From: Bilabrum cf. latius
Lineage: Eukaryota
Assembly: GCA_965178125.1 (NCBI GenBank)
Contig: OZ237751.1
Location: forward strand, 1-64,000
DNA: 64,000 nucleotides
Direction: 5' to 3'
Each line of letters begins with the position of its first letter. Positions within the stretch are counted from its first letter, which is position 1. The position numbers were made by a program, and so were the translations under genes. Positions 4,158 through 64,000 of this stretch are shown here, piece after piece. The notes under the pieces were generated by a model that saw only the letters and a program-made list of their open reading frames with translations, ran no database searches and had not been told where the DNA came from.

Positions 4158-5365
4158 TCACCACGCAGCCAGGAAGAACAGCTTTAGCATGAGAGCCATG
4201 CCGAGCTGCATGAGGACAATGGATCCCATGAGGCCCTATCGTAGTGCCTGCTTGGCCTGCCTCGCCTCTGCACTCAAGCTCGAGTCGTCCACATCGGCGC
4301 CGGCTGCGCTGCCTGGAGTCCTCCCGTCAGAACCCGGAGCCCCCTGAGACACGCCCAGCAAAGGACCTAATACCCTCCATTCAAAGTGTCCTGCAGCACA
4401 ACCAGCCACTGTCACGGCCAGCCACTGCACCGCTGCGAAAGGCATAGTGCACAGCAGTGCAGCCAGCAGGTGCGTGGTCAGCGAGTATCCCTGCACGCAT
4501 ACGAGCAGCACTAGGGGGAGGGGGCGCCCTATGTACTGCAACACTGCCCATCCCGCGATCGGTATGACCGCGACGAAGCCCAAAGAGCAGGATAGAGCTG
4601 TCGTCACTCGGGCAAAGTCGTAGTGCCACAAGGAATCCCCTGACTGTGGCTCGAACGTGAACCACCCGCTCAAATTCGACGCCACTCCGACAGCAAACGC
4701 CAGTGTTAGTGATAACCAGAGTGGTCCATACAAATCTGGCCGGTCAGAAAACACGAATGGCACTGGCACTGTCGGTTCGTCTCCGCCTGCGTCTGCCAGA
4801 GCGCGCGCGCCTTCTCCATCCAGGAACGGGTTTCCGTCGGCCTACTCACGTTCGCTATCTGGTACCCCTCGTTCTGCAGCATCCGCTGAACTTTCACTAG
4901 AAGCGACTTGCTGCATTCCCGCTGAAACAGGTGGTCGGGCTGTCCTCGTGACCGTTTGCACTGGAAGGACCACGCACCGAAGTCGCTCCAATACGTCGAC
5001 AGTATCTACATTAAAATACTGCGGTATAATATAAGACACCAGGAGCACACAAACGGTGACAAAAGCTACAAGTAGCCCGGACGTGCCAAGTCGTGGGTGC
5101 TTACCGGCCTGTAGTATGCCGCACTCAGGCAGCCAAACCAGCCGGAGGGTGGTGCAGGGACCTAAGTACCATCTACACGTGTACTGCTTGCTACGGCTAC
5201 CGTTCCCCGTGGCGCGGATGCACCTTCAAGAGATGCAGGGGCAGATTCTTTGGCGTCGACGTCTGCCCAGCCTTCCAGGGCGAGCTCCTCTGCCGAGCCA
5301 TCGGCAGACACGGCTTTTGGGCTGCCTAAGTTTCGTAGGGACACATCCGTTAAGCCGGTGCTCAT
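4158..5365 (-). CDS. Yip1-domain Golgi membrane protein (YIPF1/YIPF2-like); exons 5365-5105 and 5018-4158; 3 in-frame TAG
   Basis: Splicing gives YYRP|YFNVDTVDVLERL, the YIPF1/2 N-terminal motif, followed by PDLYGPLWLSLTL and several transmembrane segments. TAGs at 5162, 4842 and 4236 are in frame. Reading through 4236 adds the final hydrophobic helix GLMGSIVLMQLGMALMLKLFFLAAW, then TGA. Confidence 0.9.
5019..5104 (-). other. Spliceosomal intron (86 nt, GTAAGC...CGCAG) in the YIPF gene
   Basis: Canonical GT-AG ends. Its removal joins two pieces of the conserved Yip1 motif in frame. Confidence 0.88.
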
Positions 5366-5549
5366 GACCAGTTCGAAATGAAAGGAAACCAATATCGGCG
5401 CAACTTCTCGCTTTTGGCACGCTACAAATTATTTGGAGCAAGGGCGTTGAAGTGCAACAGGGCGCAACAACACCGAATTCCGCTGCTCACAAGCGTCCAT
5501 TAAGTTCACAATTTGTTACATACTGACAAAACAAGTCATCAGTTGAAGT
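5366..5549. promoter_or_regulatory. Putative bidirectional promoter (184 bp between divergent ATGs)
   Basis: Head-to-head starts of the YIPF gene and the FN3/Kelch gene, separated by an AT-richer spacer. Inferred from geometry only. Confidence 0.5.
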
Positions 5550-8500
5550 ATGACATGTTCAACCTTCAGGTTGCTGGTTGTTTCGCTTGCAGTTTGGGCG
5601 GCATCAGCGCAGATTGCTATCCGTGAACTGTCTGCGAAGCTAGAATCTCTTACCGATCTTAGCAAGCATGTAATTCTCACATGGATACCACCTACGTGAG
5701 AATGCACGCATTCCTTACTTTGCCTTCACAGTCCCACTGGATCGAGCATGACTTTATTGGTTTGGCTGTTTCATTTACAATCGCAGTGATTCAAATTATA
5801 GAGTAGTGTCATACGATGTAGAGGTCCAACCGCTCGATGGAGTAACCCTCCCCGTGTTAAGCTCGCTGCCTTACGAAAACCAAGGCTCTAGCGATGCATT
5901 CGGTTGGTACCCGATATCAATGGAGGAAGATTTGGCCAGGAGCAGCGGGTATAGGCACGCCGAATCAGGCTTAATTGACGGTGGTTTTCATGCAAGCTTT
6001 GAAATCAGAGTGATAATTCCTCCTCAGAACGCTTCGGCCAGGTTCGCGCTTGCGCTTGACGCTACTGCCAAGCAAGGTGCAGGGTCTGCTGCTGCATCTG
6101 ACCCGCACGAGCGGTCTCAATCAATTTGGGTTGGCTCTGATACGAGCAATTCTGCCCTAAAGCGTGCAGTGGAGGGCTTGCAAGGTGTGTCGGAGGCCCG
6201 GGTCGAGTCGTACGATTGGAAGGAGCGGGTCGCGGGCGCCATGCTAGCCTCGTCAAGGTCTTGGCGCGTGACCCTCGCTTTCGATGAAGACTGGGGAGTG
6301 GGCGGACATGAGCCTGTCGGATCAGGAGATGTGTCCCTGGATGCTCCTCAGCTGCGGTTGGCTCGCACTGAGGGCTTCGCTGCAGTCGCTGGTGGCCCGC
6401 CGCCAGTCCTGGTCCGCAGGCTTCGAGCCTCTGCGCTGCCCGCCGATGCTGCCGCCCATCTTGGGGTGGCTCGACTTCTCTGTGGAGCAGGTGGGGTCAC
6501 TTCGTATGTGGACGCAAGGCTGGCCCGTCGCGCAACTGGAAATAGCTCTGGTGTGCTCGTTGGCCACCTGCCGCCCGACAGCCGCACCCACAGCACACAG
6601 TCCATGGATGACGAGTGCCTCCTTGCGGTGCCAGTGGCCGTCCTCGCGAGCGGTGCTCGGCACCTGTTTCGGGTCCGCGCCAGAGTGGCCGGCTTGCCCG
6701 GATCTATCGTGCGTTAGACGCATGATGGCAACGCAAGCATGCTAGGTGAGTGGAGCGCGCCGTCTGCCCCGGTAGCAGTTCCTGCCGCAAGGGCTGTGCC
6801 ACCCACGCCTACAGCGCCTCGATAGGTAGCCAGGACCTCAACCTCAGTGTCTCTAGTTGTTCACGTGGGGGGCTCAACCATTGCGGCGCTACGTGCAGTG
6901 GAGGCCAGGGCAGTGGCTGTCCGACAAGGGGTCACACCGGGGGAGGCAAGGCTGGTGCCGTCGTGGCTTGCTGGGGCAGCGGGGACACCTGCCAGCGTGG
7001 AGATATACATTCGAGATGTATCTGGCGATGGATCACGGCAATGGCGCGCGGTTAGTCCGGTTCCACTTCTAGAGACTGGATCAGTCGGGGCTGGTGCGAC
7101 AGCGAGAGTGGTCGTGCAGCCACTTCGCCCCTCAGCTTCCTTTGAGGCCAAGGCGAGGCTGGTCTCCCCCGTTGCAGGCAAGTCACATTGGTCTCAAGTA
7201 GTGCATAGGGTTCAAACAGACGCCTCTCTGCCTCCACCGCCAGTTGTGCTCTGGGACAGGCTGCCCGCGAGTGGCGCTGTTGTCATGCTTGACGACGGGT
7301 TGCCGCTCGTCTCAAGCACGACTGTGGGGTTGCGTTGGACCACGCCTTAGTCATGGACTGGATCCCATTCGCTTGTATTCGACATATAGGCAAGGTCTGT
7401 CGAGGACCTCTCTTGGCACTTGGTAGGTAGCGCTGTGAAGGGCACTGAGGTTGGTGCGTCATCGGAGCACGTTGGATTCGTCGGTGCGCGCCATTTGATC
7501 AAGTTGTCGAAAGACGCATCCGGGGGGTCTTTCCGCCTTGTTTTCCAAGGTATTGCACGATCTCTCGTTGCTGCCCAGCGTTCTGGTGCTGGAATCGGCT
7601 CCAGCAGCATGGCCAGGCTCAACTCGTCTAGCGTGCTGCAGCTGGACGATGCCTACCCAGGCGGAGCCGCAGGTGCATTTCCCGGCGGTTTGACAACAAG
7701 GCCTATTTCTTGGGATGCTGCCGCTGCCGAAGTTCAAGCGGCTGTGCGAGAAGCACTGCAGTAGGCTAGATCTGCGATTGTTCGAAGCCAGGGGCAGTCC
7801 GGTGCGACCTCCGAGAGGGCTTGGGCCGCCGGACCCTTGGCAGTAACTGTTTCAGAGGTTGGTTCGTCCGAGCTTGGCTTGAGTCAGCGGGGCTGGGCAC
7901 TTGAATGGCCGGCTGCAGCTGGACCAGTAGCTGCTCCCAATGCTGACCCAAGTGGGATCAAGTCAGATGTCGATTTGAACCCTGGCAAGCAACTCGTCCA
8001 AGTTAGCCAGGCACGCACATGGTCAGACGGGGCAAACGTTGATGATCAAGCGCTGGTCTAGCCTCGTCCACTTTTCCACAGAGTTGTAGGCCTTAGGCCA
8101 GGCATGACATACCGGTTCAGAGTTCGATCCAGAATCGGAACAGGAGCAAACGCTTTGGGCGACGCAGGCCCGTGGTCGAGTGTCGGCCCAGCAGTCCGTA
8201 CAGCATTCGCCGGTCTAGCTCAGGATGGAACCAGCCCTGCTGCCTCTTAGTCGGAGAGAGCCGGGGCGCCTGGATCGCCGGGGGTGGGTGGACTAGGAGC
8301 CTCAGAAGCAACCCTCGCTGCACTTCAGGCTTCGACTGTGGCTTCGTCGATTTTGGCGCAGTGGAAGCAGACACTCGTGAGGGAGCCAATGACTAGCGGT
8401 TCCAATGGGCTGACTGGAGTTCTTGCGGGAACTTTACCTGCCTCAATCGAAGCGGGGGTACTTGCCAGCGCCGCGGGGTGGATGCAGCAAGTGCAGCGCG

Positions 8501-11500
8501 GCGCACGCGCTACCGCGACTGCAGCCGGTTTAGGTAGCTGGCCACCGCAGCAGCTCCAACACGGATTCTAGAACTCTTCATCTTCGATAGCACTTTTGCA
8601 TGCCGTAGCTGAGGAAATGAGTGGAATGCAGCAGAGATCATCTTAGTCCAGGGACTTGGGCGGGTTTGTGGCAGTAGGGGCACCGTTACCTCCTGCGTCG
8701 CACGTCGTGCCCGCCGTTGGCAGCACACCTGGTATGTCTGGGTCTGGGTACCATGAACCTGGCATCGGTGGGGGTGGCCAGCAGGCAGGAGAGCGCGGTG
8801 GCCATGGGCTCGTTGTCATCCGTGCGCTCGGAAGCACTGGGCCACTGCGCCTTCCTCCAGTGGATGCTGTTGGCCAAGCAGCTACCAGCTCACGATCGCC
8901 GATGCGGTCGGCTGCATTTCGATTCATTCATGGCAACGGCGATTCCGGCCGCTTGAGCCTCGTTCAGTTGCCGAAAGGAACAGTATCTGTCGAGGTACGC
9001 GCGTGGGGTGCTGGCGGAGGTGCAGGCTGTGGTGCTGTTGGTGCAGGAGGCGGTGCAGCCTTTGCGTAGGGGGTCTTTGATGCGGGCGCTGGGGACATTA
9101 TTGCAGTTGCCGTGGGAGGTGGTGGTGGTGCATGCGAGGGAGGGCGAGGCGGATCAGGCGGCTGGGGCGGCGGCGGGCGTGGAGGCAACGGGAGGGATGG
9201 GGGTGGCGGCGGCGGCGGGGGTGCATCGTGGGTGTACATCACAGCTGGGAAGCACAGCACTGTCGACCAGTCTGCTGCATCACTTCAAGGAGACGCAAGC
9301 TCAACCGCTGGTCTGAATCAAGCAGCTGCTGCGGCTAATATTAACAGCGACTTCGTGCATGGCGGGTCTGCACGTCTGCTACTGGTTGCTGGAGGCGGAG
9401 GTGGGGGTGGCGCTGCCGATGTCTGTTGCAGTGCCGGCGGGGCTGGGGCCTCAGGCGAAGCTTGGTGGCTGAGCGAGGAGCCTGCTAGCGTGAGGCTCGG
9501 CGTAAGTGAGATGGACAAGGAGAGACTGGGGTCATTGGTTGCACCCGTAAGTGGACGAGCAGGAGGTGGAGGCAGCGTTGCTTCCTTCCAGGCTCTGTTT
9601 GGTGTATCGAATGGGGATTTGGGGCGCGTACTTCCTGCCGCTGACGCGCATCGGGGGCTTAATATTAGTGATGAATCCGGGCTATTGACACTCAACTATT
9701 CAGCAAGTGGCCTTGCTGCTGCTGCAGGGGAGGGAGGCAAGCTCGGTGCTGGTGGAGGCGGTGGAGTTGGACCACATGGTAGCCTTGACGGCGACGATGC
9801 ATCTCGTATTCTCGGCTCTGCGGGGTTTGATGGGCTCTTTGGGTTCGGCGGGTCTGGCGGAAGCGGTCATGACGGTGGTGGCGGAGGGGGCGGCGGCCTG
9901 TTTGGCGGTGGCGGCGGGGCTGCTGGGCTCGACGGAGCTGGTGGAGGAGGTGGGAGCACCTTCATAGCTGCAGACCAGACCGCTGCAGCATCCGGTGGCT
10001 CGCTTCCGGGCTCCATCCCGGGCCGTGTTCGTACTGCTCCACGGGTGTTAGCAGCGACAGCGGATGAAGTAATCATTGCATGGCCTGCTAGCGTGGATAG
10101 CTGGGATTTAGCGTCTCGAGACACTGCCGGCCGAGCACCGATGATGTATTCAATTGAAGCAGGCTCAGCAAGCCCGGCTTCTGATGCCGCATTGCGACAA
10201 ATATCGCATTCAGGGCTGGTGGCTGAGTTGAGTTCATCGGACGGTTGGGTGGAGATCGCACGCGGAGTGCCTGGCCTAGGCCATTTTTCTCAAGGCAGGA
10301 AGGGTTGGGTGTCTGCAAGGCTGCGGGGATTGCCCTTGGGATCCGAGGTTCGAGTTCGCGTGCGAGCTGCATCCCGCAGGTACGGGCTTGGCCCTCCTTC
10401 TCCTTCCACGACGCTGAGAGTTCCATTGCCTGCCACGAACGGCTGGCGCAGTATGCAGTCGCTGGCTCCGGGTGCACCTCGTATCGAACCATTTGCTAGT
10501 GAATAGAGCGAGACTGAGCCTGCGAGCGCCGCAGGTGCCCGGCCGCCACCTGTTTACGGTGCTTCGACTACGGTGGTACGAGGTCGCGTTTTCATGTTTG
10601 GGGGATTGTCAACTGGACGTGGGTGTAGTGCAGGAGGCCTGATGCAAGTATGCGCTTCGAAATCCGGGGCTTAGAACACTCTCTGGGTGCTAGATCCGCT
10701 AACACAAGCTTGGAGCACGGTAAGCGTGCTACCTGACCCCATCTACGGCATTCCAGCACCTCGTGTTGCGCATTCAGCGGCCGCGCCGGGAGGCGCGCTA
10801 CACATCTGGAGCGGACATGGCTCGCCGTACGATGGCAGCAACAAGCGATGGCTAAATGACATGTGGCGATTGGACATCGCTCCAGAAAGGACATACATGC
10901 CATCAGAATCTGGCGCGATGCAGGTGTGGGAAGTACCAGACGGGACCGGTAGCTTGGTTCTGCCTCTGATCGTTTCGACTGAAGCCGACTCTCGCCGCGT
11001 CCCAGATCCTGTGGCCGGAATGGCAGACTTCGACAGGGCTCGGTCTACGATCGTCCTACGATCTGTATCTGACCAGCTCAATGGTGAGCTGGATGCGGTT
11101 ACCTTGGCTGCCACGGGGGATGCAACAGCTGCTGGCCTGCCAGGTGGTGCAGCGTCTGAGTGGACTCGTGCAAGAGCAGCGGATGCTCAGGCCCAGGGTG
11201 AGTGCGTTGTGTCCGTGCAGGTATGGGTGGAGATGAGACATGCTTGTTTACGCGACCTAAGCATTAGCCTTGAAGGTCCACAGGGCATTCCTGCAAGGAC
11301 AGGCATGGCCGAACGTTGGGTCCATGGCACTGGGGCTTCAGCTGGAAGCCGTACCGGTTTCGGTGGAGCTGCTTCTTCGACAAGCAGATAGGTGGTGCCT
11401 CTGCTTGATGGATCACAGCTTGCGAAACAGGAGCGCAGCCAGTGCTTGCAGACTTTTACTGGTCATGGCAGTACATTAAATGCTTCGATGGCACCATATG

Positions 11501-13758
11501 CCGTTTCAGACTGGGATGAGCAATGGCCGTGGTGGATGGACTACACCAGCTTACCGACGGGACCATTCGGGGTTGGAGGCCAGGCCGATACCAGCACAGC
11601 AGGTATTCGCGGCTCCGAGTATGCTACAGCAGGTGCAGGAGGCAGTCGTTGGGCGCCTGGGCATTTGGCGCAGCCCAGCGGTGGATCTGGGGGGCCCGTT
11701 CCAGCCTATGGGGCCAACATGCTCGTTTTTTCCGATGATGTTGGGGCACATCCGGTTCCGCTTCGAGAAATTAGGGCGGCATCGCCAGTTTCAGGTAGAT
11801 GCAATGCATCTGCACATGCCTGCTCGATTGATGCAAGCTCACGCGCCACAGTGGAGCGAGCTGCAGCTGGCAGCCGTGAGTCGTCAGAGAACGGCGCCCT
11901 TGAATCGAATGGATTGCCTCCGTGGCTATCTGGTGAAATGCATTCGCTAGAATCCTTAAAGGCCTTCCAAGGCGTGCGAGCTGCGGGACAGTGGAAGCTT
12001 AGACTGCAGGATTCTAGACGTAACGGCGTCTCTGGAGGCATTCGGCGCTGGGGCCTCACGTTACAAACGAGCCCATGTCATGCGAGGCCGCGATGGCGCC
12101 ATCTTCGGGACGATTCTGATTCAGTAGGACCAGCGCCGTTACCGCCTATGCCGGGCCAATCGGGTCGTCCGGACCGCAGCGAGGAGGACGATGCGTTGGT
12201 GTTCAGCACCAGGCGGGCAGCGCCGCCATCGCGCGACAACCCGACCTCAGTAGTGCTTGGGCTATCATGGTTCATCGCTGGTGGCTTCGGGACTGGCCCG
12301 CACTCGGACCTCTGGCGGTTCGATGCCGAGTCGGCGGCCTGGACCAGACTTCGCCCTGCGCCACGCGGTTCTGCAGAGTTTGGTTGGCCTTTCGCTGGGA
12401 CTGGACCTAGTGCAGGCCACTCCATGTTCGTCCCGGCGGGTCGTAGCGCTGCCTTGACACCGTGGGGCGTCGTAGCAGTCGGTGGGCACGACACGCTGGC
12501 TAATGGCCCCCTTGCGATGGCCCCCTGGAGGCTCGACCTCCACAGTGGGCGCTGGTTCCCCTTAATGCCTTCAATCTTGCAGCAGCGAAATGCACATGCT
12601 GATACTCGCATATCACGTCGAGTTGATGGCAGTGCAAGCGCATCAACGCCCGCAAATGTCGGGTGGTCGGCCTCTGCCCGGGGGAGCGGGCAGCCTGACT
12701 CTGGTCTGGCCCTCGAAGGATCTCACCACATGGGGGCGGATCCAGGGAGTGCTCGAGGTTCCCTGAGCGCAGCTGCACTAGCTACCGCGCTGAAGTCTGC
12801 GTAGGGTGGCTCGAAGCAGGGCACAGTAGGGGTTCCGGTGGGACCCTCAGCCACGACTGGGTAGCTGTCTAGGGCGCGAGCGGCATCTGGCAGGATTTTG
12901 GCATCGCCAGAGCCGCGCCTGTAGCCTGGGTTGTCCATCATTGGTGTTCCGGGCTCTTTATCTGCAAAGAGAGGCCTGGCTGCTCCGTAGCTGTTGGTGG
13001 TGGGCGGCCAGTCGACTGAGACTGGGCAAGCACTTGGAGACGTTTGGTCGTTCAGCATTCGCCACGTGCCGTTCCCCGCAGCCGACGGAGGCACCACTGG
13101 TATCGCAACCAGCAACGCGACGGAAGCGCACAAAATTCTGTCATCACCAGCAATACCAGACCGAGTGCAGAAATAGGCAAATCCTGCGCTGCGCGACGTC
13201 GATCGCCTCGTTGGACAGTCTTCGCAGGGTCTCGCAGCATCGGTGCAAGATGCAGCGGCGCCAATCACGCCGGGTCAGTCGCATGCCTACCTGCAGAATT
13301 CTGTCCATAAAGCGCCTTCTGAGCATAGGATCAGGGTGGATCAGTAGCATGCTGGGAGTTTTGTGCCAGGGCAGAGCAACAGCAAGTGGCCGGACTCGTG
13401 GCATGCAGGGCAGGTGTTGGCACCATGGCAAGGACCAGCCGGCTGGTGGCAGGCTCAGTGTCCTCATCGTCTTAGCGAAGGATCAACATCGGACTAGCTA
13501 TGGCGAGGGTCGTGCATGTCCGGGCGAGAGGCATTGGGGGGTTATGATGCGTCAGACGGGGCTGGGGGGCTTGGGCTGGCACGCACTGCTGGGCAGCACC
13601 AAGCAGGCAACTCGCTGGCGAATGCGACCGCAACGTCCAGGGCCTGGACATCATCATTGCAGATGGGATGGAGCCAGGCAGCTACACCGTGTGATATTCG
13701 AGAGGTTCTGGTACGGGCAATGTGTGCACATGAGTGGCAGTCGATTGGCCAAATGTGA
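5550..13758 (+). CDS. ~2,700-aa secreted multidomain protein: signal peptide, FN3 repeats, glycine-rich domain, Kelch repeats, proprotein-convertase P-like domain; exons 5550-5695 and 5787-13758
   Basis: Signal-like N-terminus MTCSTFRLLVVSLAVWAASAQ. FN3 motifs LTWIPPTDSNYRVVSYDVEVQ, GLRPGMTYRFRVRS and GLPLGSEVRVRVRA. Gly-rich block at 8990-9960. Kelch motifs RVFMFGG, WLNDMWRLD and DLWRFD. P-domain-like VWVEMRHACLRDLSISLEGP ... FQGVRAAGQWKLRLQD. Track ORFs 5806, 6847, 7420, 7837, 8284, 8656, 9112, 10687, 11392, 12994 and 13516 share one frame, are joined across TAGs and end at TGA. Confidence 0.85.
5696..5786 (+). other. Spliceosomal intron (91 nt, GTGAGA...TCGCAG)
   Basis: Phase-2 GT-AG intron. 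Its removal joins the signal-peptide exon to the main frame and restores an FN3 motif (WIPPT|DSNYRVVSY). Confidence 0.85.
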
Positions 13759-13920: not shown

Positions 13921-14196
13921 TCACAGTGCCCCGCCATCTTGTTGCACCACCACGTCAATCTGCTCTCCGTCCTCGATACTCAAATCTGCCGGAGTCTTGT
14001 CCGCAACAATTCTATCGCCATCGTACTAGAACTGCATGGATTCTACCTTGAGTCCTTTCTTTTTCCCATATGCCTTGAAGATCTTGCCAAATTTTGTTGA
14101 CCTCCGAACTCTGAACTGCACAGTATCGCCATTCTGGTCCCGCAGCGTGATCTGCATAGCTTCTTTGGCCTTATCAGCATCACCAGACCCCGACAT
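13921..14196 (-). CDS. SUMO: Small ubiquitin-like modifier (SUMO/SMT3 family), 91 aa, one in-frame TAG at 14026-14028
   Basis: Translates as MSGSGDADKAKEAMQITLRDQNGDTVQFRVRRSTKFGKIFKAYGKKKGLKVESMQF*YDGDRIVADKTPADLSIEDGEQIDVVVQQDGGAL, then TGA. It has SUMO fold motifs and a C-terminal di-Gly with a short propeptide. It is absent from the ORF track because the TAG splits it. Confidence 0.93.
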
Positions 14197-14565
14197 CCTG
14201 CGTAAAGGGATTCGATGGAGGAATTAGTAGCGACTCGCCCATTTGTATCATACTACGTTTCTATTCATGGCAGCATGCAGAGTTAATCTGGCGGAAACGA
14301 TCAATTCAATGATTCTCACAGTACAAAGTGCTACTACAGTCGCCTCTTTAGCGCAGTGGCGTTGTTCTGTTTCCGTTGTGCTGTTGTGCTGGCGGTCCGT
14401 CCAGTAGAATGTTCCTTTTGGGTTCGTTTTTGCTCCGTCGCAGCTTCCTTCAGCACCAGCGACAGGGGCACAGAATATATTAAATCTTGTTCGCCTGCCA
14501 CATCTTAATCTTCTGTGTGTGAAATTTATCTAGCTGTGGCCTTTGGTGGCACATTGAGCGCTTTG

Positions 14566-17500: not shown

Positions 17501-18177
17501 TTGCCGCAGACCGTGTCAACGAAGCAGTAGCCACAGCGGGTGGCACAGTGGGAGCAGGGTGCGGGATTGCCGGAGATGCCAGGCAATCTATGGTCGCTAC
17601 AAGTTGGGCTTAGGCAGAGAAAGAGGTGCGTTCGATGTCTGCATGGGAGGAGCAGCACCACGAGAGACTGGTCGCGAAGGACTCGATCAGGGGCCCCCTC
17701 GGTGCCTCCTCTCTGGCCAACGCAGGAATCAGGCTGTTCTTTGCAGATCCCACCGAAAGGCTGAGCGTCTCGCCTGAAGTCATCGGGTACATGCCGATGC
17801 CAGAGGCTGTCCTTGCTGTGGCTGGACGAGCTGCTGTGCTTGGGAACGCCAGGGTGCCGCTCACAACCAGCGAGGACTTGGGGCCCGGGGCCACTGAGGC
17901 GTGGGTGTCTGACATGGGATTGCGGGCTGTGCTGCTTGCGATTGGCCCGCAAGCAGCGACGGGCATTCTAGCTTCTGCCGCACTGTCGGGAGACATTGCA
18001 TTTGTGTGGCAGCTGCTGCTTCTTGAAGGGCCTCCCCCAGGAGGGACTTTGCCGCAGTTGCCAACCGTGCTGGCGGCAGTGCGTGGGTGGCAGCAGCAGC
18101 AGGCTTCGAACCGTGTGGCATCATCTGCAGGCTCATCGCTACCATAGCACCCAGCTTAGCCTGGTGGAAGGCAGTGA
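14566..18177 (+). CDS. Hypothetical ~1,200-aa Ala/Leu-rich, probably helical protein; possible mitochondrial presequence
   Basis: Track ORFs 14515, 15853, 16360, 16810 and 17626 share one frame joined across TAGs and end at TGA 18175-18177. The N-terminus MLQGTRAAQRMSLRLVPSINKRS is Arg/Ser-rich without acidic residues. The start codon is uncertain and no family was recognised. Confidence 0.7.
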
Positions 18178-39006: not shown

Positions 39007-39384
39007 TGCGGCTGGCTCTCTCGTGAAGTCCTATTTGCCGGAGTAAGCTTCAAACAACCGCAGCAGTTTCGGAGCCAGGGAACGAAAGTACAATTCTGGA
39101 GACAAGCGTCGGATTAATATAAGGTTTAGCAATCAGCCAGAGCGTATCTACTCCGGGTATTGCAATTTTGGAGAATCGGTGTAGATCGTCCGGAGTGGAA
39201 ATCATGTTCGACAGACATGAATCGGGTGAATGATACCATAGCACGGGGCATAATACCATCATGTTTCTGCGATGTTCAGATCCCCAAAACTGGCCAGCAT
39301 CGGCGTACCGCTTGCACCTAGCCTGCCACTACGATCCAATCATGCACCTCCGAGTCGTAATACTAGCAGCAGCCCTTCCGACCC

Positions 39385-39430: not shown

Positions 39431-39433
39431 AGG

Positions 39434-40483: not shown

Positions 40484-40751
40484 TCTATAGTGCTGTGGCT
40501 TGTCCTTTGTGAGTCTAGCAGCGGCTAGTAGGTTGTGAGATGCCCGTGTAAAAAGAATCACGAGCTAAGGAATTGTACCTGCACGTCTCACAAGTTGGAA
40601 GCCGAGTGCAAGTGTTCTTGATGCATGCAATGATGAGGCTGGCCACTGGCAGACTCGGAGTTTCAAAAAAAAATCGATGAATGAGACGATTGGGTGATTT
40701 CACTAACAAATGATCAACATGGGGATCGCACGAAGAGCTGCGGCTCCGCTG

Positions 40752-50182: not shown

Positions 50183-50367
50183 TGCGACATATGACATCAT
50201 GATGATCGCACAGCTTACTTTGTGCATTGGACCGCATTCAATCGCCGCCACCGACTTCCTATCCTCCTCGCACACAGTACCAACCTGAACTTGTTTTGGC
50301 CTCGGTTCGGACTGCACCGCACTGCAGCCTCAGGTAGCTGCTCACCTTCCCGCGCACTTACAGGCCC

Positions 50368-53300: not shown

Positions 53301-56300
53301 GGAGGTGCAAGAGAATACTGTGGGTAGTTTTGTGGCATCTACCTATGCCAAGGATAGCCATCTTTTCGTCGAGCGCATCGCAAAGCTCAAGCGCAGCTCT
53401 GCAGTGCAGCGAGCCCTTTAGGCCGGTAGCGCGTCAGTTGATGCGACATGGGGATGGGGAGTCTCGCAATTCAAAGGGATGTTTATGCACTCTAAGAAAG
53501 GAGCCAAACGAAGGCGGGTACGCCGCCACCGTCTCGAGTCGAGCGCCTCTGTGCAATCAAGGCGGCTAACAGCTGGGACCAGCTCACTCGCATGGGACGA
53601 TGCGACTGCCGGACTGGTGTCTCCAGTCAGTTTGCCGCGGCCATCGATCGCAGCTTAGGACAAAAGAAACAATCAGTATGGATCTATGCTGTCTCGGGCG
53701 GCTGCGAGGGCTCGAGACGGTAGCGACGATGATTCTTCGGACGACTCTGAGCATGCCCCATCCATCGGCAGTTCGAGTAGCGCCAAGTCAGGAGCTGCGC
53801 CAGACGTGTCTAACGCGGATCCTGGCGAAAAGCGGGGTGCATCAGGCCAAGGCAAGCCATCTGCATGGGCAGTTGCTGGCAGAGTTGCACGAGTCCGCGC
53901 CATCTTCGAGAGGCGGCTGCAGCGCTCAGACGACGAGCCATCAGCGCAGTCGCCCAGATCAGACCAGGATTCTGGCCATGGATTGCCCTCTGGCAGGCAG
54001 TCTCCGATCGAGAACGGAGGGGCAAAGCTCGACAGTTCTGGCCCCATGCTGCTGACGGACTTGGCAGACGTCCTCCCCGACGAGCACGGCGCGAACGCTG
54101 CAGCCAGCGATGAGAAGCAGTCTCGCAGCAGGAGGCGTGCGAGACGAGGAAGTGCAGCTTCGGTCGAATCGCACGGGTCACATGTGAGCGGTATGACAGA
54201 TGCCTCAGATTCAAGCCATTGGTCAGCTCTAACTTTTGGAACCTCATTTGGTGGGGCTGTAGCTTCGCAAGATCAGCCTGGCGACACGGCACTGCAGGGG
54301 TCATGGCTCGCAAGTGGCAACACGAGGGGGCAGTAGGGCCGAGCGGTTGGATCCGGGGACTCGGTGGCTTCGTTCGCTACCTAGAGCAAACGGCTGGCGC
54401 GCTAGCAGTCCGTGGCACAGCTGGCCCAAGCTGAGATCACAAGGGTCTCTGAGCTCCTGCAAGAGCACGCTGCTGGGAACAGAAGAGAGGGTGAGAATGG
54501 CTCGGGTATTAATCGACCAAGACTTCTATCTGAAGCCTCTCGAAGGGCGGCTGGAGCTCGATCGACCAGCTTGAAGACTGTCAAGCACGCAGACCTGGGG
54601 TTTGACGGGCTCGTGCAGGCCAGCTCTAACTTGGACGCAGTCACCAGGGCAGCGAGTCTGGCCGTGATAGCGCTCAAAAAGATGCGCATTGACAGGGAGC
54701 GAATCAGCGGGTCTCCTGGAACGTGGTACACAGTGCTCACAATGGGTGCACCTGCGCTGCATGCTCCACTTGCTCCCTTGGAGAGCCTTGGGTCGCTGGC
54801 ACGGCTCACTTACTTCAAGTGCTTCCAGTCCACTGCAGAAGGCCAGAAAGCGTCACCAACCTACTACCCTCACAGGCAGAGGTACATGTCCGTGCCAGGG
54901 TTTGCTGAGGGCCCGTACTAGGGCATGGGGGGCCTCAAGACTGGTGGACTGGAGGCGCTGCGATTGCCGCTCATCACTGGGCTTGGCTTGGACGATTCTA
55001 CATCTTGTGCGGCGTTTCTCGAGGCATGGTCACTGTGCTGTGTCAGTCCAACGTCGGTTGCGGTGTAGAACTGGCGCATGGAGAGATCTACTGCTGAAGT
55101 GGAGGCTCTGCAGCGGAGGTAGGCATGGAGGAAATGGTTTGCGCAGGCGGTCGCAGCCACGTCACGAACAGGGTCGCGGGATGCGTTGGCGGCGCTGCCA
55201 TAGTCAAGTAGCCCGAAGCAGTCGCATTTTGCGAAGAGTGTACGAGCTATTGGGGACACTGATACATCGGATATGGGCATGCAGCTTGAGGCCTTGGGCA
55301 TGGGGCAGATCCTGGGGGCCCAAGGTGCGGGGGAGGGCGTTGCCAGAGCCAGGTTGCGCGAGGACCAGCTCAAGAAGAAATCTGATCAAGTGGCCAAGCG
55401 ATCTGCCTTGGAGAACCTCATTTCCACTCTGGGGGCGGTCGGTCTCGGTCATGGGGTGGAGCGGTCCAGCGTGACACACAACGCGCGGCCTACCTACGAC
55501 TGCGCCGTCCCACTGTCGCAGGCATCCATGGCTGCTGCGTCAGTTGCCATCGCTCTACAGCGCAGAGAGGACAGAGTGTTTGCGCAGGCGCTCTCGGCTG
55601 CTGTTGCGCTCGTGTGCAACGCAGTTGACGCCGCCATCGCCTCGCAGAATACCTCAAGGCTGGCTCCGCTGGCCAAGTCAGGGTTCCTGCTGTCCTTCGA
55701 GAGCCTGCTCAGCACTGCCGGAAGTGAAACCAGCATGCTTCGAGATTTCAAAGTCGCGGTCAGGTAGCTTGCTAAAGTCAGGGTTCGCTTTCGATAGCGC
55801 CTCGGTAAGGCTCAGGCGCGCGGTGCGGCGGCCATCTGGCGTGTGTCTGGCGTGCATGCCCCTGGAATGACAGGAACGTCGAGTGGTGGGTCTTCTTCGC
55901 GCCCATCGAGTCAAGATTCGCTTGCAGCAGATGCTCCACGATGGTATTCCTCCACGGATGGGATATCCGTGTGGGGCAAAGGGACTGCAGCTGTGGATGC
56001 CGGGACGTACTACCACGCAGCAGTCACCGCGCAACAGCTCAAGCACTCCGCGCCTCGCGGCAAGCCGCACACGCGAACTGGGACACGAAGTGGGTCTGGG
56101 CACAGTAGCTTGCACGACAAGAGCCTCCCAAGCGCCGGAACAGGAAAGATATCTGGTCCAACCACTCGTGGGAATCATCCAGACCTCAGCGGTGCCACGC
56201 AGGCAAGGCATGCGCATGGGAGACAGCTGTCGTTGGGGCAGCAGGCCAATCAAGGCGGTGTACCGATGCTGCGCAGATCACGAACGGCCATCCAGGCTTC

Positions 56301-59300
56301 TGCAGCGCGAGAAGTAGATTCATGGAGCGTATCGAGCGACGAAGACTCCAGCCGTGGGCTGCCCAGCCGACCAGTCCGTTAGCCCCCGTTGGCCCCGTAG
56401 CCTCCACCGGTCGCAACCCGCACTGCAAAGAGAAGGGTAACTGCAGCTGCGATTCCAAACTTGTCCCAGCAAGCGGATTCTGCTCACCCGATTTCTGGCC
56501 TAGATAGAATTTCGAGCATCGAGCGTATCTAGAATGGCACTGCTGCGGCAGTCTCAGAGAGCGATAGCGATTCCGAAGGCGCGGACATGGCTCGAGCAAT
56601 GGAGCGCGGTGATGAGGCTGCAGCTGAGGCGAACAGGCAGTTTTCCATTGCTGCAGCGCAGCGAGCGTAGGCTGAGCAATCTGAGGGGGCACTCAAGAAG
56701 TTGAACCAGCGTTACGCTCGAAAAAAAGCAATGCGGATCGGAAGCCGCACGGAGGCTCATGATGAGCCCAATTGGCGTGAGCTTGACGCTGCAGAGGTAG
56801 ATTCAGACAGCTATGAATCAGACGCAAATTCTACCAGCAGCAGTGACGACGATTCAGCAGATCGGGGTGGCGTTCCAGACCAACTACTTTCTACTGCACA
56901 AAGCTTGGTGGAGTCTGCAGCACACGATTGTGCGGTTCTGGGCGGATCATCGGGGGCCCTGGCGGCAGCGGAAGGAACGGCACCAGCAGATGACTCCCGA
57001 AGGGTGTCGGTTCTCGAGGGGGTTGGAAGCAGCGCAGCAGGCGATTTAACGTCAAAAGCAAGCCGGGATGGTAAGGAGGGTGGCAAGAGGAATGAGACGG
57101 CAGACCAGACCGCCCCGGCACCTGAAGACAGTAAATCTCCCAAGGCTTCACTAGGGTCTGGTTCGTAGCTTCTACCACCGGTGCCGTCGTCTCTAGACAG
57201 CCTGCATCCTAGTGGTGCAGCACGACCCGGAGGGCGTGCATCTGTGGGCTCCTCTCAGGTGCGGCCCGATGATGTTCCTAGGCAAGACAGTGCTCAGTCC
57301 GTGAGCAGTATGAGATTCTCCGGCGACGACCTGCGGCTCGTTGCACAGAAGTGCTCCTGGGCCCACGTGTGGGAAGCCTCTGGCACCAGCGATGGGTCCG
57401 AATTCGATGCGGATGCCTGCTCGAGCGAAGAGATTCCAGTCTATGCGATGGAGTAGCATCGTAGGCCACCGTTGCCACACTCTGATCCCAAGGAAGTCAG
57501 CATTTCTCTCATATCCAGCCGGGATCGATCGCAGACCACTCTCGCGGTTGCACCTGATCGAGCAGGATAGCAAGATCGAAGCGGAGCTGGTAGAGAGGCT
57601 ATAGCTGGCGAATCAGCTCCGACGCAAGGCCTCTCGAAGCTACCTTTACCTAAGCTGGCACAACATCTGCGAGACACGGTGCCGCCGCAGCGGAAGCAGC
57701 GGAGGTCGAGGGTGCAATGGGCTTTGCGTCGCACCGCTGAGCGGCTGATGTCGACCCAGACTCGAGTGGTGGAGGGCAGCAGACTAGCAAAGTCGCCGTA
57801 CAGCGGGTTCAGGGCCGGCGTGGAGGCAGAGGCCGCACAAGCATTGCAGCGAGCCAGCAAGCTGGCCAAGAAGAGGTTGCTGCAGAAATGGTCGTCCTCT
57901 GCAAGCCAGTCTTCCGTGGTGCGAGCTATTCTCGGCGACGGTGGCAGCACAAGCGGGGATCTGGAGGGGGCGCTGCAGCTCGCGAGGTAGGGCTCCGTGC
58001 GTGGTAAGACAGACGCGAGTGCAGCATAGGCAGTGCGTCGACTTAGGGGCCGCGGGCGGTTCTCGGTGTTTGGTGCCATCCAGGGCCTCAATGCCGGCGA
58101 TCTCGCCGACAAGCTGAGGCAAAAGCGCAGCGGCTCTGCTGGTGCAGCGATCCCGCAGTCACCAAAGCTTGGGCCAGCCGAGGCAGCTGCTTCAATTGGT
58201 GAGTCAGAGAGCAAAGGAGCAGATTCATCTGACCTGAAGTGGAGGGCAATCTGGTACGATGTGCAGCCAGTGCTTGCCGTGGGTTCACCATCGCTCCCGC
58301 AAGCGGTATGGGTTGACAACGTGGTCGCCATGCGGCTGCTCGTCCTTGCAGCGAGCATCGGAGGCGCTGTGGGACCCCGCCTCGCCGAAGCAGCAGCCTG
58401 CCTGCGTACTACGCGCCCGGGTCACGACGAGCTGGCGCAGAGCGGGTGCCTGCAGACAGACGGCGTATCCAACGCACATGCCCTGCTTTCCTTGGTGGCC
58501 AGAGACAAGCGCTCGTCTGGCAAGGACACTCGGCGCGGGCGGACTCTGTCTGCCGATGGCGGCAGCAATGACGATGGGGATCCCGACCGCAGGGCCAGCG
58601 CGGACAGTATTGCCGAATTGGACGATGTAGCAAGCGCTAGTACGGCTTCACTGGCCATCCGCGACGCGTTGCATGCGGCGCTCCTCAAGTACCCCTATCG
58701 TATTGCTGCCCCTGATCTCTTGCCGGCACCACCGGCAGCACCGAGCGCACCAGCACCTATTCCCCCCAGGGGAGTGGCAGTCCCAGCCCGTATCCGGGAA
58801 AAGAGGCAGAGGTTTTCTCTGCGAGGGGGCGGTATCGCTCCGTTGAGCGCCCCGGGATCGCCAGAGCTGCAGGCTCAACCAGCTGCGATTGCTGCCCGCG
58901 GCGCAGACGATCCAGTAGCGGTGATCCCGCCCGAGTACCTGTCACAGGTGATTGTGCATCTAGCAGCTGCAGCGGCAGAGGACCAGCAGGTGCTGCGGTC
59001 CGTGCAGCGAGTGAACCCTTCTCTTCGAGCTCTGCGCGCGGAAGCTGTGGCTGGGGGCCACCAGCGGGGGCGCCGAGCCGCGCTGCGGGCGCTGGTGAGG
59101 CTCGCCGGCGTCCAGTCAGCCGATGGGGCGGGAGCGGGCGGGCCCTCATCTCCGCCGAAGCAGCAAAACCGGAGCGGTGGCCGAGCAGGCCGTGTGAAGC
59201 GGGCACGAGGAGAACAGGCCGGAGACTCGCCCCAGGACAGCCCTCCACCAGCTCCTCGACCCAACGGCACGTCTGGCCCTCAGATCACCCCCTCGATCAC

Positions 59301-60114
59301 GATGTCCTCGGGCTCTCCGTCTGGTAGCCGCGGCCAAGATGGGCCCAGAGTGCCTGCCTCCCAGCTGGCGGGGGCCCCGGGGACAGAAGCCGCCGACCTA
59401 CCCGCTTTCTGCGCTGCAGCCGCGCAGGATGACACGCTCCAGGCCGCAGTGCTGCTTGCCAACGAGCAGTCCCTTGTGGTTGACCTGGAGTGCAAGCCCT
59501 CCGTATTCGACCAGCTGCCAGCAGCTCTCAGGGACGCAGCTGTTCCCCTGGTGCCCCTCTTGTTCTCCCAGGGCATCAACGAGGCGCAGACTTTCGCTAA
59601 CCTGCAGGGCAGCTCAGATCTGTCCCTGCAGCAGGAAACAAACCAGGCATCTCTATTCAGGCTGCAGCAGTTCGCGCGTCGATGGGCCGTGGAGCTGGCA
59701 GGCGCCGAGATGCGCGCCATCGACAGGGACCTGGCGGCCTTGGGAACCGAGGTACTGGCTGAGGCGGACCCAGGGAGGCGCAGGGCCAAGCGACCTAGGG
59801 TGCTGCAGCTGGCGGGGGACATCGTACGCGCGTTGGGGGGAGGGCGCGTGACCTGCTGCAAGAGCGGGAAGGACCGCACCGCCATGAGCGTCACGCTGGA
59901 GATCGCGCGCGTGCTGGCCAGAAGGCACGGGCTTCCCAAGGCCCGTGTCCTGGAGACTGCCGCTCTTCTTAGGGAGTGGGGTGTACGGAGGGACGTGTGC
60001 CGCAAGTGCATCGGGAAGCCCAGGTTTGCCTTCAACAGGCTGCAGCAGGGCTTCTTACCAGAGGAGTACCAGCCACCCGCTGGCAGCATCGCACAGGGCG
60101 CGTTAGAAACTTGA
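50368..60114 (+). CDS. INPP4: Inositol polyphosphate 4-phosphatase (INPP4-type, PI(3,4)P2 4-phosphatase), ~3,250 aa with long low-complexity insertions
   Basis: Catalytic CX5R motif CKSGKDRTAMSVTLE. Family blocks appear in order: YKPSALK...FLPLNLHLHSM, YTVLTMGAPALH, DRVFAQAL, FESLLSTAGSETSMLRD, LFSQGINEAQTFA, FAFNRLQ. All pieces lie in one frame joined across TAGs and end at TGA. Confidence 0.88.
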
Positions 60115-60421
60115 TCGTGGGGACGGTGGAAGAGACCTACTGTGCTGTTCACTACCGGACTTCGTCTGGCAGACGATCCTGCGGGAAAGGGAGGCAGCCT
60201 GAGGGTAGGGTCCGGCCTGATGAGGGTAGCGAGTCTGGGAACCGGAATTGAGAGCAAGCAAACGAGAACACGAATGAAAACGTCGCATTCCGCATACTAG
60301 CTTGCACTCCTTTTTTCAATCAACGGTGCTGTTTCATTTGTGCTAATTTGCTCAGTTGCTGCGTAGAAGGCGAGCCATTTACCATAGCTTTGTGTTTCTC
60401 TCTCCGCGTTCTCGACGCGAC

Positions 60422-61294
60422 ATGGAGAAAGAAGCAGGATCTTCAGCACACAGAAATGCAGGGTCCGGTAAGGTGGGACGTTGTGGCACGAAATAGGAGG
60501 AGTTAGACAAGATGGTAGCAATGCAGGCGGCTTCAATCATGCTTGGCGGTGGACGGGCGGGCATGGCAGATGAAGCTATGGTGGACCTTCGAAGACTCGT
60601 ACTCCGCCAAGCAGACACACAATATGGCCTCCGCAGTCGTGCTAGGGTGAAGAAGTGCAAAGCTTTGGGCCTTAGGTTGTCTCGTCCGAGACCACCACCG
60701 AAATAGCCACTCGAAGACGAGCCTAAGGCTGCTCGCGATGGCATCGTCGAATCGGTGAAAACCCACCGCTCCACGACAGGTGCAGCTCACTCGAGTCGTG
60801 CAAAGAAGACCAGCCGCAAGACAGTCACTGTTAAGGGGAGAAGCGATTCACGTTTGATAAAATAGACGAAGGCTGAGCTCGTGACAGCCAGGCGCCACCA
60901 GCTGCAGCTCGAGGCAGAGGCGCGTGATCAGAGGCGTAAGGCCCTTGGGATGCCGCGATCGTCGAGAGAGTCCATCACGAGGCGACAGCAGGAGGCGTTG
61001 CAGCGCCACATGAGGCGTGGTCGCACCCAGGCGCGTGCGTGCGCTGGCGGAGCACGAAGGGATGGAGGATCGCAAGCTGCCACCGGTCGCAACGGGACCG
61101 TAGGTTGCACTAGTGGGGCAGCTAGGCCTTCTCGTGCTCGGAACCATGGGAGTGATAGTGGTACACCTGCTCGATCGGCCGAGCCGCCAGCGGTTTCAAA
61201 CGATCATGGGTGGGATGAGCAGGCCCGGGTGTGGGCGCTGAGGGGCGGTTTGCCAGGGGCGCGGGCAGTCGAGACTGAGGAGCACACCAGATAA
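60422..61294 (+). CDS. Hypothetical basic (Arg/Lys-rich) protein, ~290 aa, 3 in-frame TAG, ends in TAA
   Basis: ATG 60422 is in frame with track ORFs 60512 and 60881. It is the only predicted gene here ending in TAA (61292-61294). No family was recognised. Confidence 0.6.
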
Positions 61295-61543
61295 GCAGGC
61301 GAAGCAGAAGTCCAAAGGCAATATTCAGTCCAATTTAATCCGCGATGCGGGCCCCCCGGGACCGTGATCTCTGCGGAACATGTCGGCTCGCGGCGCCGCC
61401 AACGGTGCGTAGACTAACTTATCCGGATTGAATGTGCTGTTGCACTCAACATTTAACAAAAGTACCGGTGATATTGGAGTCCAACCAGCGCTCATTGTAA
61501 GAGCAGTCAGTGCTCAATTCGCTGCAATTCAACGCAGGCCTCA

Positions 61544-64000
61544 ATGCTAGGCTTCATCCTGTCGCTGGCTGTTGCGTCAAGCCTTTGCATCGGGTCTGGT
61601 ATCCCTGAACCTCAGGCGAAGTATGCAGCCATGCGGCCTTTTCCCGTTGGAGTCGTATTTATTTAGGATCCGAGGCGTCACAAGACCATGGCAGATATCA
61701 AGGCCGAGTTCGCCCGTATCAAGCAGGCCGGATTCACGTGCCTAAAGCAGGTAATGCTAAACAACATCACGGACTCGTTTGTGGCTGAAGTGTTCGACAC
61801 TGCCCTGGATACCGGGCTGATCCCCTGGTGGTACGACATCGGGGGATGGGATAGCATCACGGACTCCCTGCTCGTAAAGCTTGGGCTTCCCAATTTCATC
61901 AGCATGGAGGACGCAGAGAATGCGCCAGCGATGGTCGATTACCAGACGAAGTTCCTCAGGAAGCGGGTGGCGAACATGTCCACTATTCCGCCGTACACGC
62001 CTCCGGCTCCGAAAGGACCGGGCCTGACAGTGCTGCCTATGGATTAGCGCCTGGTCCCTTTCTTTGCAGCTTGGCTGCAAGATGAATACGATGGTGATAT
62101 CGAGGCCCTAAATCGAGCGTGGCACGTTGACACCACGGAATCTCTGTCAAGGGCTTCGCGTGCAGCAGTAGAGATGCAAGCACATGGCCGACAGGCCATT
62201 GACGTGGCCTCGATCGCCGGCGGGTACGGCCTTGCGAGCGCCGCCTCAGCCAGAGAATCCGACTAGCAGCCCAAGCAGACTGTGAGGAGCTCGCCGCTCC
62301 GCAATTTCACCGATGCAGCCCTCAGTGTGGCTGTCCCCACCGGCGGTGCAGCGCCCGCCCCCGGACAGTGGGCCTTCGAGTACCTCGGGTCGAACTTCCA
62401 CTTCTCCCCGTGGCAGCCGAGCGGATGGGACAGGGACTATCGTCGGTTCAGGGATGCCATGCGATTCCACGCGCAGCACAAGGCCGGTCTGGAGCTGGAC
62501 ATGTGCAGGTACATGCGCGCGCACGAACCCCAGCAACCGGTGCGCGTGGGCGGCGAGACAATGCTGCTGCAGCCGCAGCCCCTCAACGGCTGGGACAGGG
62601 CGCTCATGGCAGACGTGGCCCGCGAGTGCGGGGCCTACTACGACTCGCTGCACCTGCCGTGGCACTACGCGCTCACCAACACGGAGAGATCCGACGGGCA
62701 GCACCATGGCTTCCACAGGTATGACCCCGACCAGAGCCTCTACTCCATGGCGCGGTACATTGCAGACGGGGGCAGGGACATGTGGCGGGGGGCCTTCGAG
62801 AGCAGTGGGGGCCCTGCGCTGTACTCTGGCGCGCAGGACAGCGGCATCGACGGTGGCCAGATCTAGAGGATGTTCATGAACTATTTGAGCGCAGGCCTGC
62901 GCGGGATCGGGGTGTGGTCTTGGAACGCGCGGTGGCAGGGGCAGGAGGCGGGTGGCTATGCACTCACCGATCTGCAGGGAAACGTGGGAGAGCGAGCAAT
63001 CGCGGCTGGGAACGTGTCTAAGGCGATCCAGCGGGAGAGGTTCTCTCTGTGGGAGGCAGAGGACGAGCCCGTTGTGGCGGTGGTGCACTCTTGGGAGGCA
63101 GAGGCAGCCAACTCGAGGATGGGGTAGGCGGGCGGGCCCGTGATCTCGTGCACGCTTGCAGGGTGCAGGGACAGGTGGGCGCAGGAGGCCTGGATGCACG
63201 TCAAGGCACGACTGGGCGTGGCGGCAGCTCTCACTGCCGCCGGTGTGCCCTGGCAGTGGGTCAGTGACGATGATGTAGGGCAGTGGGGTGCCGACGGGCT
63301 GCTGCAGCGCGGATTTAGGTCGGTGGTGCTGCCGGGGCTGGTGAGTGCCAACTCGACGAGCCTCCTCCCGGTGCTGCTGGGCTTCGTGGCCAAAGGCGGC
63401 ACGGTGGTTGCAGACGCGCCCCTCGGGATGCTAGAGGCCCCCGGCAGCGAGTTGGTGGACCATTTCCGGGCCTCGAGCGGTAGCAGCAAGGACCCTGCTT
63501 GGGCAGATCTGTTCGGGGCCGGCGTGTCAAACTGGCAGTCCTCATCCAACGGGTATGAGAGGATTGTCTCAGAGCTGCCCGGTCGGCTGGGGCGTCCCCA
63601 CCATGCTTCGGACTCGGGCGGTCTCTTGGTCCAGGGTACCACGGCGGATCTGCTGGTGGACGAATCTGCCCCCGGCGGTGGGGCCACGCTCGTCGTGGAG
63701 CCGGGGCATGGGCAGCCGAACGCTCGCCCCTGGGCCAGCGCCGCGGTGTGGGACAGGCCGCAAGGGGGAGGCCGCACCGTGCTGCTTGGCTTCGAGGCAG
63801 GGCGACTGGCCTTTGCCGAGCCTGCGCCTGCCTCGAGCGGGCTGTGGCCGGGCGAAGTCGAGGGCGGGCCCACGCATCCCGTGCCGCCCATGAGCGGACT
63901 GGGGCCATGGAGTCGATTCCTGGCGGAGTGCTCGACCCGCAACTACACTCTCTTGCCAGGAGCAGGGGCAGAGGCAGGGGCGATTGGCAGCACTCCTGCG
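61544..64000 (+). CDS. Secreted glycoside hydrolase, GH42/beta-galactosidase-like (TIM barrel plus trimerisation-type domain); runs off the window end
   Basis: Signal-like MLGFILSLAVASSLCIG. Motifs IKAEFARIKQAGF, FAAWLQDEYDGDIEALNRAW (GH42-like), RDYRRFRD, GIGVWSWNAR and LLGFVAKGGTVVADAP (trimerisation-domain-like). Track ORFs 61688, 62282 and 62870 share one frame joined across TAGs. Confidence 0.75.

Follow-up and report, generated by a model that had tools for sequence, protein, structure and literature searches.

What does the codon UAG mean in the nuclear genes of Bilabrum cf. latius (Eukaryota)? We analyzed the first 64,000 nucleotides (nt) of contig OZ237751.1 of GenBank assembly GCA_965178125.1 (positions 1 to 64,000, forward strand; hereafter the window), in which twelve reading frames with alternating strands extend from position 4158 to the window end. 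An original prediction, made from the letters of this stretch, held that UAG is a sense codon here, uncoupled from UAA, while UAA and UGA remain stops. Our analysis supports that reading on four grounds: 1) the statistics of the open reading frames (ORFs); 2) protein domains that continue beyond TAG codons; 3) transcript-like contigs that retain the TAGs; and 4) stops in relatives at the same positions. On this sequence evidence UAG very probably serves as a sense codon in nuclear genes, with UAA and UGA as stops. Termination is mostly at UGA.

In-frame TAG codons and protein domains

The twelve ORFs between 4158 and 64,000 comprise about 19,100 codons, of which 187 are in-frame TAGs; TAA and TGA never occur internally, and TAG is present in every one of the twelve genes, as had been claimed. 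The 11 ORFs other than that for SUMO account for 186 in-frame TAGs and zero internal TAA or TGA in 19,169 codons, and the SUMO gene contributes one further in-frame TAG (14026-14028). One of these ORFs is g4, a gene for a secreted, EGF/EF-hand-like giant protein (18296..25705, plus strand, stop TGA), whose open frame begins at 17813 and whose translation probably starts from the ATG at 18296, also the start of the relative P0056; it contains 42 TAGs from that ATG and 44 from 17813. With g4 trimmed to the ATG, the coding frame has 184 TAG, 1 TAA and 9 TGA in 19,008 codons, and each of these ten TAA and TGA closes a gene. In the other two frames on that strand the counts are 83 and 88 TAA, 243 and 435 TGA, and 226 and 212 TAG. 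At the off-frame rate of TAA plus TGA (0.0223 per codon), the probability of finding no internal TAA or TGA by chance is about e^-433, while TAG occurs at 0.97% in frame versus 1.15% off frame. Because the in-frame rate of TAG lies near its off-frame rate, TAG is not avoided, and TAA and TGA are wholly excluded.

The effect on gene length is large. Read with the standard code, the whole window has no ORF longer than 693 amino acids (aa); with TAG as sense, ORFs of 2650, 1220, 2630, 4362, 410, 1573, 1534, 3295, 312 and at least 819 aa are obtained. Four frames free of TAA and TGA measure 7.9 kilobases (kb; 5806-13758), 7.9 kb (17813-25705), 13.1 kb (26044-39132) and 9.9 kb (50227-60114), which agrees with the 7-13 kb first read. 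TGA is the stop of ten of the 11 complete genes and TAA that of one (60356-61294); the twelfth gene exceeds the window. Our count thus reproduces the earlier tally of ten TGA, one TAA and no TAG. The original prediction had also set its reading against a code in which TAA is as frequent as TAG within genes. Were TAA read like TAG, about 90 internal TAA would be predicted from the CAA/CAG ratio (239/489 = 0.49); none was observed, which rules out a coupled, ciliate-type code in which UAA and UAG (together UAR) are both sense. Coupled UAR codes for glutamine (Gln, Q) are found in many ciliates, Ulvophyceae, hexamitids, Streblomastix and Amoeboaphelidium, and the window resembles them in that a stop has turned to sense, probably via a mutated tRNA-Gln, but differs from them in having 0 internal TAA in roughly 19,000 codons against about 90 expected.

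Protein domains extend across the TAGs and beyond them. Pfam matches were obtained to Kelch, proprotein-convertase P-domain, EGF, TIG/IPT, pepsin-type aspartic protease, Rieske, ankyrin (expectation value (E) 1e-34), PH, RCC1 (E 1e-62) and FYVE domains. The SUMO gene (13921..14196, minus strand, stop TGA) encodes 91 aa with a ...GG-AL tail and matches SUMO structures in the PDB down to E 2.7e-31; its TAG, at codon 57, lies inside the domain match, and the GG processing motif is kept 3' of the TAG. A PH_12 match (13-127) contains TAG at 16 and 115, a Kelch match (1570-1693) contains TAG at 1623, and a Rieske_2 match (73-153) contains TAG at 75. The claim that TAGs fall within recognisable domains is therefore borne out for SUMO, PH, Kelch and Rieske. 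Other domains lie downstream of many TAGs: the FYVE domain and the ankyrin repeats each follow 10 TAGs, and the pepsin-type match (3746-3825) follows 40. From the longer list of TAG-bearing domains given at the outset, SUMO, PH, ankyrin, EGF, IPT, Kelch, Rieske and pepsin were recovered with Pfam or the PDB and Yip1 weakly, whereas GH42 and FN3 were not: at E<=0.5 the sole match of 61544-63997 was to DUF7340, and FN3 is not among the listed domain matches at E<=1e-4.

The genes that encode these domains all end in TGA. They comprise a Kelch/P-domain protein gene of 2650 aa (5806..13758, plus strand, first ATG at 5920, 20 TAGs; Pfam); a gene for a 4362-aa protein with TIG and pepsin-type aspartic protease domains (26044..39132, minus strand, 45 TAGs); a Rieske-domain, RFESD-like protein gene (39434..40666, minus strand, 3 TAGs in the open frame); g7, a 1573-aa ankyrin-repeat protein gene (40752..45473, minus strand, 14 TAGs); and g8, a PH-RCC1-FYVE protein gene of 1534 aa (45578..50182, plus strand), whose 10 TAGs all precede FYVE. 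Codons 571-572 of the 4362-aa gene form an adjacent in-frame TAG pair (..NTVL-TAG-TAG-QHKLL..), which speaks for decoding that is efficient and against readthrough as a rare event.

Transcript-like contigs and relatives

A 9.4-kb test stretch was found complete in sequencing runs X1-X4, from one sample, and in X5-X7, from two other studies. Contigs of X1 and X5-X7 were compared over 39000-58999; runs X8-X12 share 5-7% of words and were left out of this comparison. In X1 a single contig with a flat depth of 20.3 spans the whole of 39000-58999. X5 is broken at all four intergenic gaps of this interval and once more within g8: a contig of 13,349 nt begins at 39144 (its other end, computed from its length, lies at about 25796), and further contigs cover 39256-40604, 40688-45469, 45576-46451, 46539-50172 and 50369 onward. 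Its depth varies by gene, with 25.6, 24.2 and 25.9 for three minus-strand genes versus 9-16 for plus-strand genes, and against the DNA it has 0 other letters and 0 gaps, the TAGs being retained. X6 and X7 consist of shorter contigs that also lie within genes, and one X7 contig begins at 40685, three bases from an X5 contig end. The differences listed in 20 kb amount to one base (52447 G>C, in X7), with no indels.

The gene-wise breaks and depths of X5 appear to form the pattern of a transcriptome assembly. If X5 is read in this way, the mRNAs retain every TAG and the genes are intron-free. The contigs, which cannot prove strand or transcript ends, imply 3' untranslated regions (3' UTRs) of 64-250 nt. 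Same-strand gene runs might be co-transcribed, judging by their near-equal X5 depths, contig depth being a poor measure. A joint at 51204>54072 was considered as a splice and rejected as a repeat artefact, since it has a 21-nt anchor, lies in a CAG-repeat stretch, has TT..GT ends and spans a length not divisible by 3. Short repeats at 39387-39428 (CATGGG-type, within the Rieske gene's 3' UTR) and 51173-51205 (CAG-type, in g9) attract many unrelated contigs; the depth spikes and loose ends that result are no evidence of splicing.

The DNA of 39000-58999 occurs, with 0-1 differences in 20 kb, in runs from three studies that are filed under three organism labels. Its source in those runs may be a co-cultured partner, a parasite, prey or a contaminant, or the label may differ by submitter.

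Proteins of relatives exist in a public collection only as ORF fragments cut at stops, with no intact relative. Fifteen such fragments align to three genes, one at 99% identity, eight at 81-93% and six at 53-67%; P0015-P0019 align to g7 and P0058-P0065 to g9, a gene of 3295 aa (50227..60114, plus strand, 29 TAGs, stop TGA). The fragments at 81-93% represent a close relative, with four of the eight on one 18,963-nt contig, and those at 53-67% represent at least two different distant relatives. Ten of the 15 end exactly opposite a TAG of the window, one of these at 67% identity; as TAG occupies only about 1% of positions, chance is excluded. Where both sides of the stop are visible the protein is conserved on both, as in the g7 fragments at 219-513, 626-714, 794-1076 and 1226-1533. 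In-frame stops thus stand at matching places in the relatives, so that the code change is common to a clade and older than the 53-67% divergence. Among the TAG sites that could be reached in the close relative, 8/15 are kept as stops and 7/15 are changed. Searches for the relatives' DNA gave only generic RCC1 matches among metagenome contigs (with the RCC1 protein), no match for the g9 C-terminus and one bacterial ankyrin match for P0018 among genome contigs, and no match among viral contigs (with P0018, g5 and g9). A protein search with full-length g8 likewise returned generic RCC1 proteins only.

Little weighs against a sense reading of UAG as such. The RNA status of X5-X7 is a guess from the run search, no run being on record as RNA, and X5 is classed as 'probably DNA' by the run tool. 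UAA as an actual terminator is based on one ORF (60356-61294), which has no other gene support. Neither a tRNA gene, tRNA(CUA) included, nor the gene for release factor eRF1 was found within the window. TAG also approaches the ends of genes: in five of them the last TAG stands 5-39 codons before TGA, which is less than the mean spacing of some 45 codons that the off-frame rate predicts for non-coding sequence, and g3, a gene of 1220 aa with no known family (14515..18177, plus strand, first ATG at 14566, 11 TAGs, stop TGA), ends at 18145-18177 in TAG CAC CCA GCT TAG CCT GGT GGA AGG CAG TGA, with two TAGs in its last 10 codons. Near gene ends UAG may also be able to terminate. The last TAG of g7, at codon 1534, is conserved in the close relative and precedes TGA by 39 codons.

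That the TAGs go untranslated, the genes being pseudogenes, the TAGs being removed by splicing or editing, or the assembly being in error, would fit the guessed RNA nature of X5-X7 and the fact that translation of TAG is deduced from sequence. It is nevertheless extremely improbable in view of the vanishing chance of a frame without TAA and TGA. The same sequence, with no indels, is moreover present in four DNA-type and three other runs from three studies, the sole candidate joint is not splice-like, and relatives conserve both the flanking protein and the position of the stop. Persistence of TAG in transcripts, which had been proposed as a check, is supported insofar as the TAGs are kept and no credible splice joint appears, and is left short by the guessed status of those three runs.

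Candidate residues at UAG

We tentatively propose that the residue at UAG is polar and most likely Gln, a reading that corresponds to NCBI table 15. In the distant relatives nine TAG sites were usable, and Q stands at three of them (g9 609, 1000 and 1565), and the remaining six are occupied by A, A, H, L, E and R; with flanks only 33% identical, a tenth site (S at 659) was set aside. Three of nine is an excess, because Q accounts for 3.8% of residues across these proteins, and the flanks of the three Q sites are 85-88% identical (e.g. ...QGG-X-WYKPSALK...). In log-odds tests with three PAM/BLOSUM matrix pairs, Q ranks first in two and third in one.

Other observations count against Gln. Its log-odds margins over E, K, N, H and Y are only 1-3 natural-log (ln) units, and with the third matrix pair H and N stand above Q. 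The seven changed sites of the close relative have E, Y, L, D, W, K and S, and never Q; since CAG<->TAG is expected to be the commonest silent change, the missing Q speaks against Gln. Codon 57 of SUMO is opposite L in the best single-domain match (5gjl) and in plant SUMO, or opposite R in SUMO2/3, and at g7 site 1228 the close relative and one distant relative both have L.

The last two sites also speak for leucine (Leu), which UAG would encode if a copy of tRNA-Leu(CAA) had mutated to CUA, as in an insect-dwelling rhizarian and some phyllopharyngean ciliates. At the SUMO site the flanks are identical to those in 5gjl (F_YDGDRI), and Leu also came second in a neighbour-context test, a test without real power. 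Three Q matches in conserved blocks stand against Leu, as does its place outside the top 8 in all three log-odds tests, and R at the SUMO position in SUMO2/3 indicates that polar residues are tolerated there. Alignments to PDB structures point the same way; the residues that face TAG in four domains are polar or small: E in the ELMO PH domain; polar residues in ankyrin repeats; A in the UVR8 RCC1 blades; and, for Kelch proteins, P, C, C, T, S or D. One TAG also falls at EF-hand loop position 4, which adds to the case against Leu. In Rieske proteins TAG is opposite E or C, and in the PDB alignment of the pepsin-type domain it lies outside the aligned part. The Kelch site had been considered as Leu from repeats within the protein, an assignment that was dropped on the residues found in the PDB alignments. 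Leu is on balance unlikely.

Another single amino acid, such as Glu, Lys, Tyr, Ser, Arg or His, is a doubtful candidate. In the log-odds tests the scores of E, K, N, H and Y differ from that of Q by 0-5 ln units, and the neighbour context of TAG is like that of R, K and Y sites, in what is a weak test: its naive Bayes classifier was left unused, cross-validation having failed to recover Q, K, E and Y sites. A code with UAG as Tyr exists, and Tyr makes up only 1.3% of residues here when TAG is left out. For Arg and His we know of no natural precedent in stop reassignment, which counts against them. Codes with UAG as Ser and with UAG as Glu are also described in the portion of PMC11687900 available to us. 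Each of these other residues, however, is seen at most twice in 16 comparisons, versus three times in conserved blocks for Q.

Gln as the preferred residue does not account for how quickly the TAG sites change. Turnover in the close relative, at 7/15 of sites versus about 15% of residues overall, is about three times faster and is unexplained, and 6/7 of the changed residues are one-base neighbours of TAG. UAG might then have no single fixed meaning, either through near-cognate readthrough with an eRF1 that is blind to UAG, or by acting as sense and also as a stop near mRNA ends. Seven different residues at seven changed sites, six of them one mutation from TAG, are what such a code would leave; the fast turnover fits a codon tolerated where any residue will serve, and two TAGs stand directly before the TGA of g3. 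Against this, the domain matches to SUMO, PH, Kelch and Rieske contain TAG, the close relative keeps eight of 15 TAGs, one TAG persists in a relative at 67% identity, and no complete gene lacks a TGA or TAA stop. Known ambiguous codes have very short 3' UTRs, and the lengths implied by the contigs also speak against ambiguity. We regard an ambiguous UAG as quite improbable.

A further possibility joins these alternatives at the level of the lineage: a non-ciliate, GC-rich and intron-poor protist clade, with at least three divergence levels in public data, may have reassigned UAG independently, with a meaning new for UAG-only nuclear codes (e.g. Tyr, Lys, Arg or His) or with no single meaning. 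This too is unlikely, and would explain both the seven residues at seven changed sites and the roughly threefold faster turnover of UAG sites.

Proposed mechanism and known UAG-only codes

In the mechanism that we propose for a sense UAG, a tRNA with anticodon CUA would deliver the amino acid. Such a tRNA could have arisen from a copy of tRNA-Gln(CUG), which is one mutation away, as is tRNA-Leu(CAA). eRF1 would have lost recognition of UAG and retained that of UAA and UGA. Since the anticodon CUA pairs with UAG but not with UAA, UAA would be left untouched. Both the tRNA and the eRF1 step are modelled on studied stop-codon reassignments, as presented in the accessible part of PMC5304391.

Outside ciliates, the available portion of PMC11687900 gives three UAG-only codes: in a rhizarian (Leu), in Iotanema (Gln) and in Scotinosphaera (Ser). 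The original prediction had called UAG-only reassignment rare, and this holds to the extent that few lineages outside ciliates have it, while the non-ciliate count must be raised to three, with Scotinosphaera added to the earlier two. Among ciliates, Protocruzia and several phyllopharyngean ciliates have UAG-only codes (Gln, Leu), and one ciliate reads UAA as Lys and UAG as Glu, according to the parts of PMC11687900 and PMC5304391 at hand. A literature search found no further GC-rich non-ciliate lineage with a UAG-only code beyond the three known, which is weak evidence that the present one is unpublished.

In reassigning UAG alone, with UAA and UGA as stops, the window resembles Iotanema spirale, Protocruzia tuzeti and two phyllopharyngean lineages, as these are described in the available excerpts of PMC5304391 and PMC11687900; Gln is best supported here, though unproven. 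Iotanema differs in being described, in the same portion of PMC5304391, with a scarcity of UAG, whereas UAG makes up about 1% of codons in the window. In contrast to a ciliate macronucleus, the window has 58% GC, TTAGGG-type arrays and an X1 contig of at least 60.7 kb, the longest X1 record being 212 kb. The rhizarian exLh (Sainouroidea) is likewise a non-ciliate with reassignment of UAG only, having 384 UAG in 71 genes with UAA and UGA as stops, which are UAA in 56/71 genes (PMC5304391, in the part available); UGA ends 10/11 here. UAG is Leu in exLh, and Leu is disfavoured here by the residues of relatives, though SUMO and g7 site 1228 fit it. The green alga Scotinosphaera (UAG as Ser) is a third non-ciliate that reassigned only UAG and retained UAA, as far as the accessible text of PMC11687900 describes it. 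In the window, unlike Scotinosphaera, Ser is seen once in 16 comparisons, the genes show no introns in 13 kb and telomere-type repeats read TTAGGG. Green-algal telomere repeats are of the TTTAGGG type.

The change thus looks like the same kind as in known UAG-only codes, in a further lineage, and is not categorically new. Uncoupled reassignment of UAG is rare outside ciliates, and another such lineage, for which a contiguous genome, apparent transcriptomes and graded relatives exist, would allow study of the capture of UAG with UAA remaining a stop, of the rate at which new UAG codons spread, and of the co-evolution of eRF1 and tRNA(CUA) in a GC-rich genome, where an explanation by AT-pressure fails. 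If the standard code is used to annotate this genome or those of its relatives, their genes will be shattered; the public collection already holds relatives as TAG-cut fragments.

Other genes and the chromosome end

No Rfam match was found within the window, which contains no rRNA. Between 25796 and 60114 the genes are densely packed in same-strand runs, with about 80-200 nt between transcript-like contigs. The C-terminal 693 aa of g9 (58033-60111) are free of TAG and resemble inositol polyphosphate 4-phosphatases, with an atlas feature score of 0.95 to two INPP4 clusters and no Pfam match; they contain CCKSGKDRT, which we take to be of the CX5R active-site type. Neither these atlas neighbours nor the best SUMO match places the organism, the protein matches in general being non-diagnostic. 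Three genes remain. The first in the window is a gene for a Yip1-like membrane protein, read as a stop-to-stop frame (4158..5225, minus strand, 2 TAGs, stop TGA), whose match to Pfam Yip1 (E 4.2e-5) is below the cut-off. The frame that ends in TAA (60356..61294, plus strand, 3 TAGs) would encode a basic protein of 312 aa with no known family and lacks independent gene support. The last, a secreted protein gene without a family match (61544..64000, plus strand, 5 TAGs), was read for 819 aa and exceeds the window.

The leftmost 3.9 kb of the window form a composite chromosome-end structure. From the outside inward this consists of a 155-bp satellite in 4.3 copies (1-672), an (AACCCT)x94 telomere-type array (672-1238), a 339-bp satellite in 4.5 copies (1318-2830), an (ACCCTA)x50 telomere-type array (2967-3270) and a 53-bp satellite in 10.9 copies (3273-3848). 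The TTAGGG telomere noted at the outset is thereby recovered as CCCTAA arrays. The two arrays point the same way, and neither reaches the edge of the window, satellite sequence lying beyond even the outer array. The composite could be a genuine interstitial structure or an assembly join. By arithmetic, the X1 contig on the window starts near 3814.

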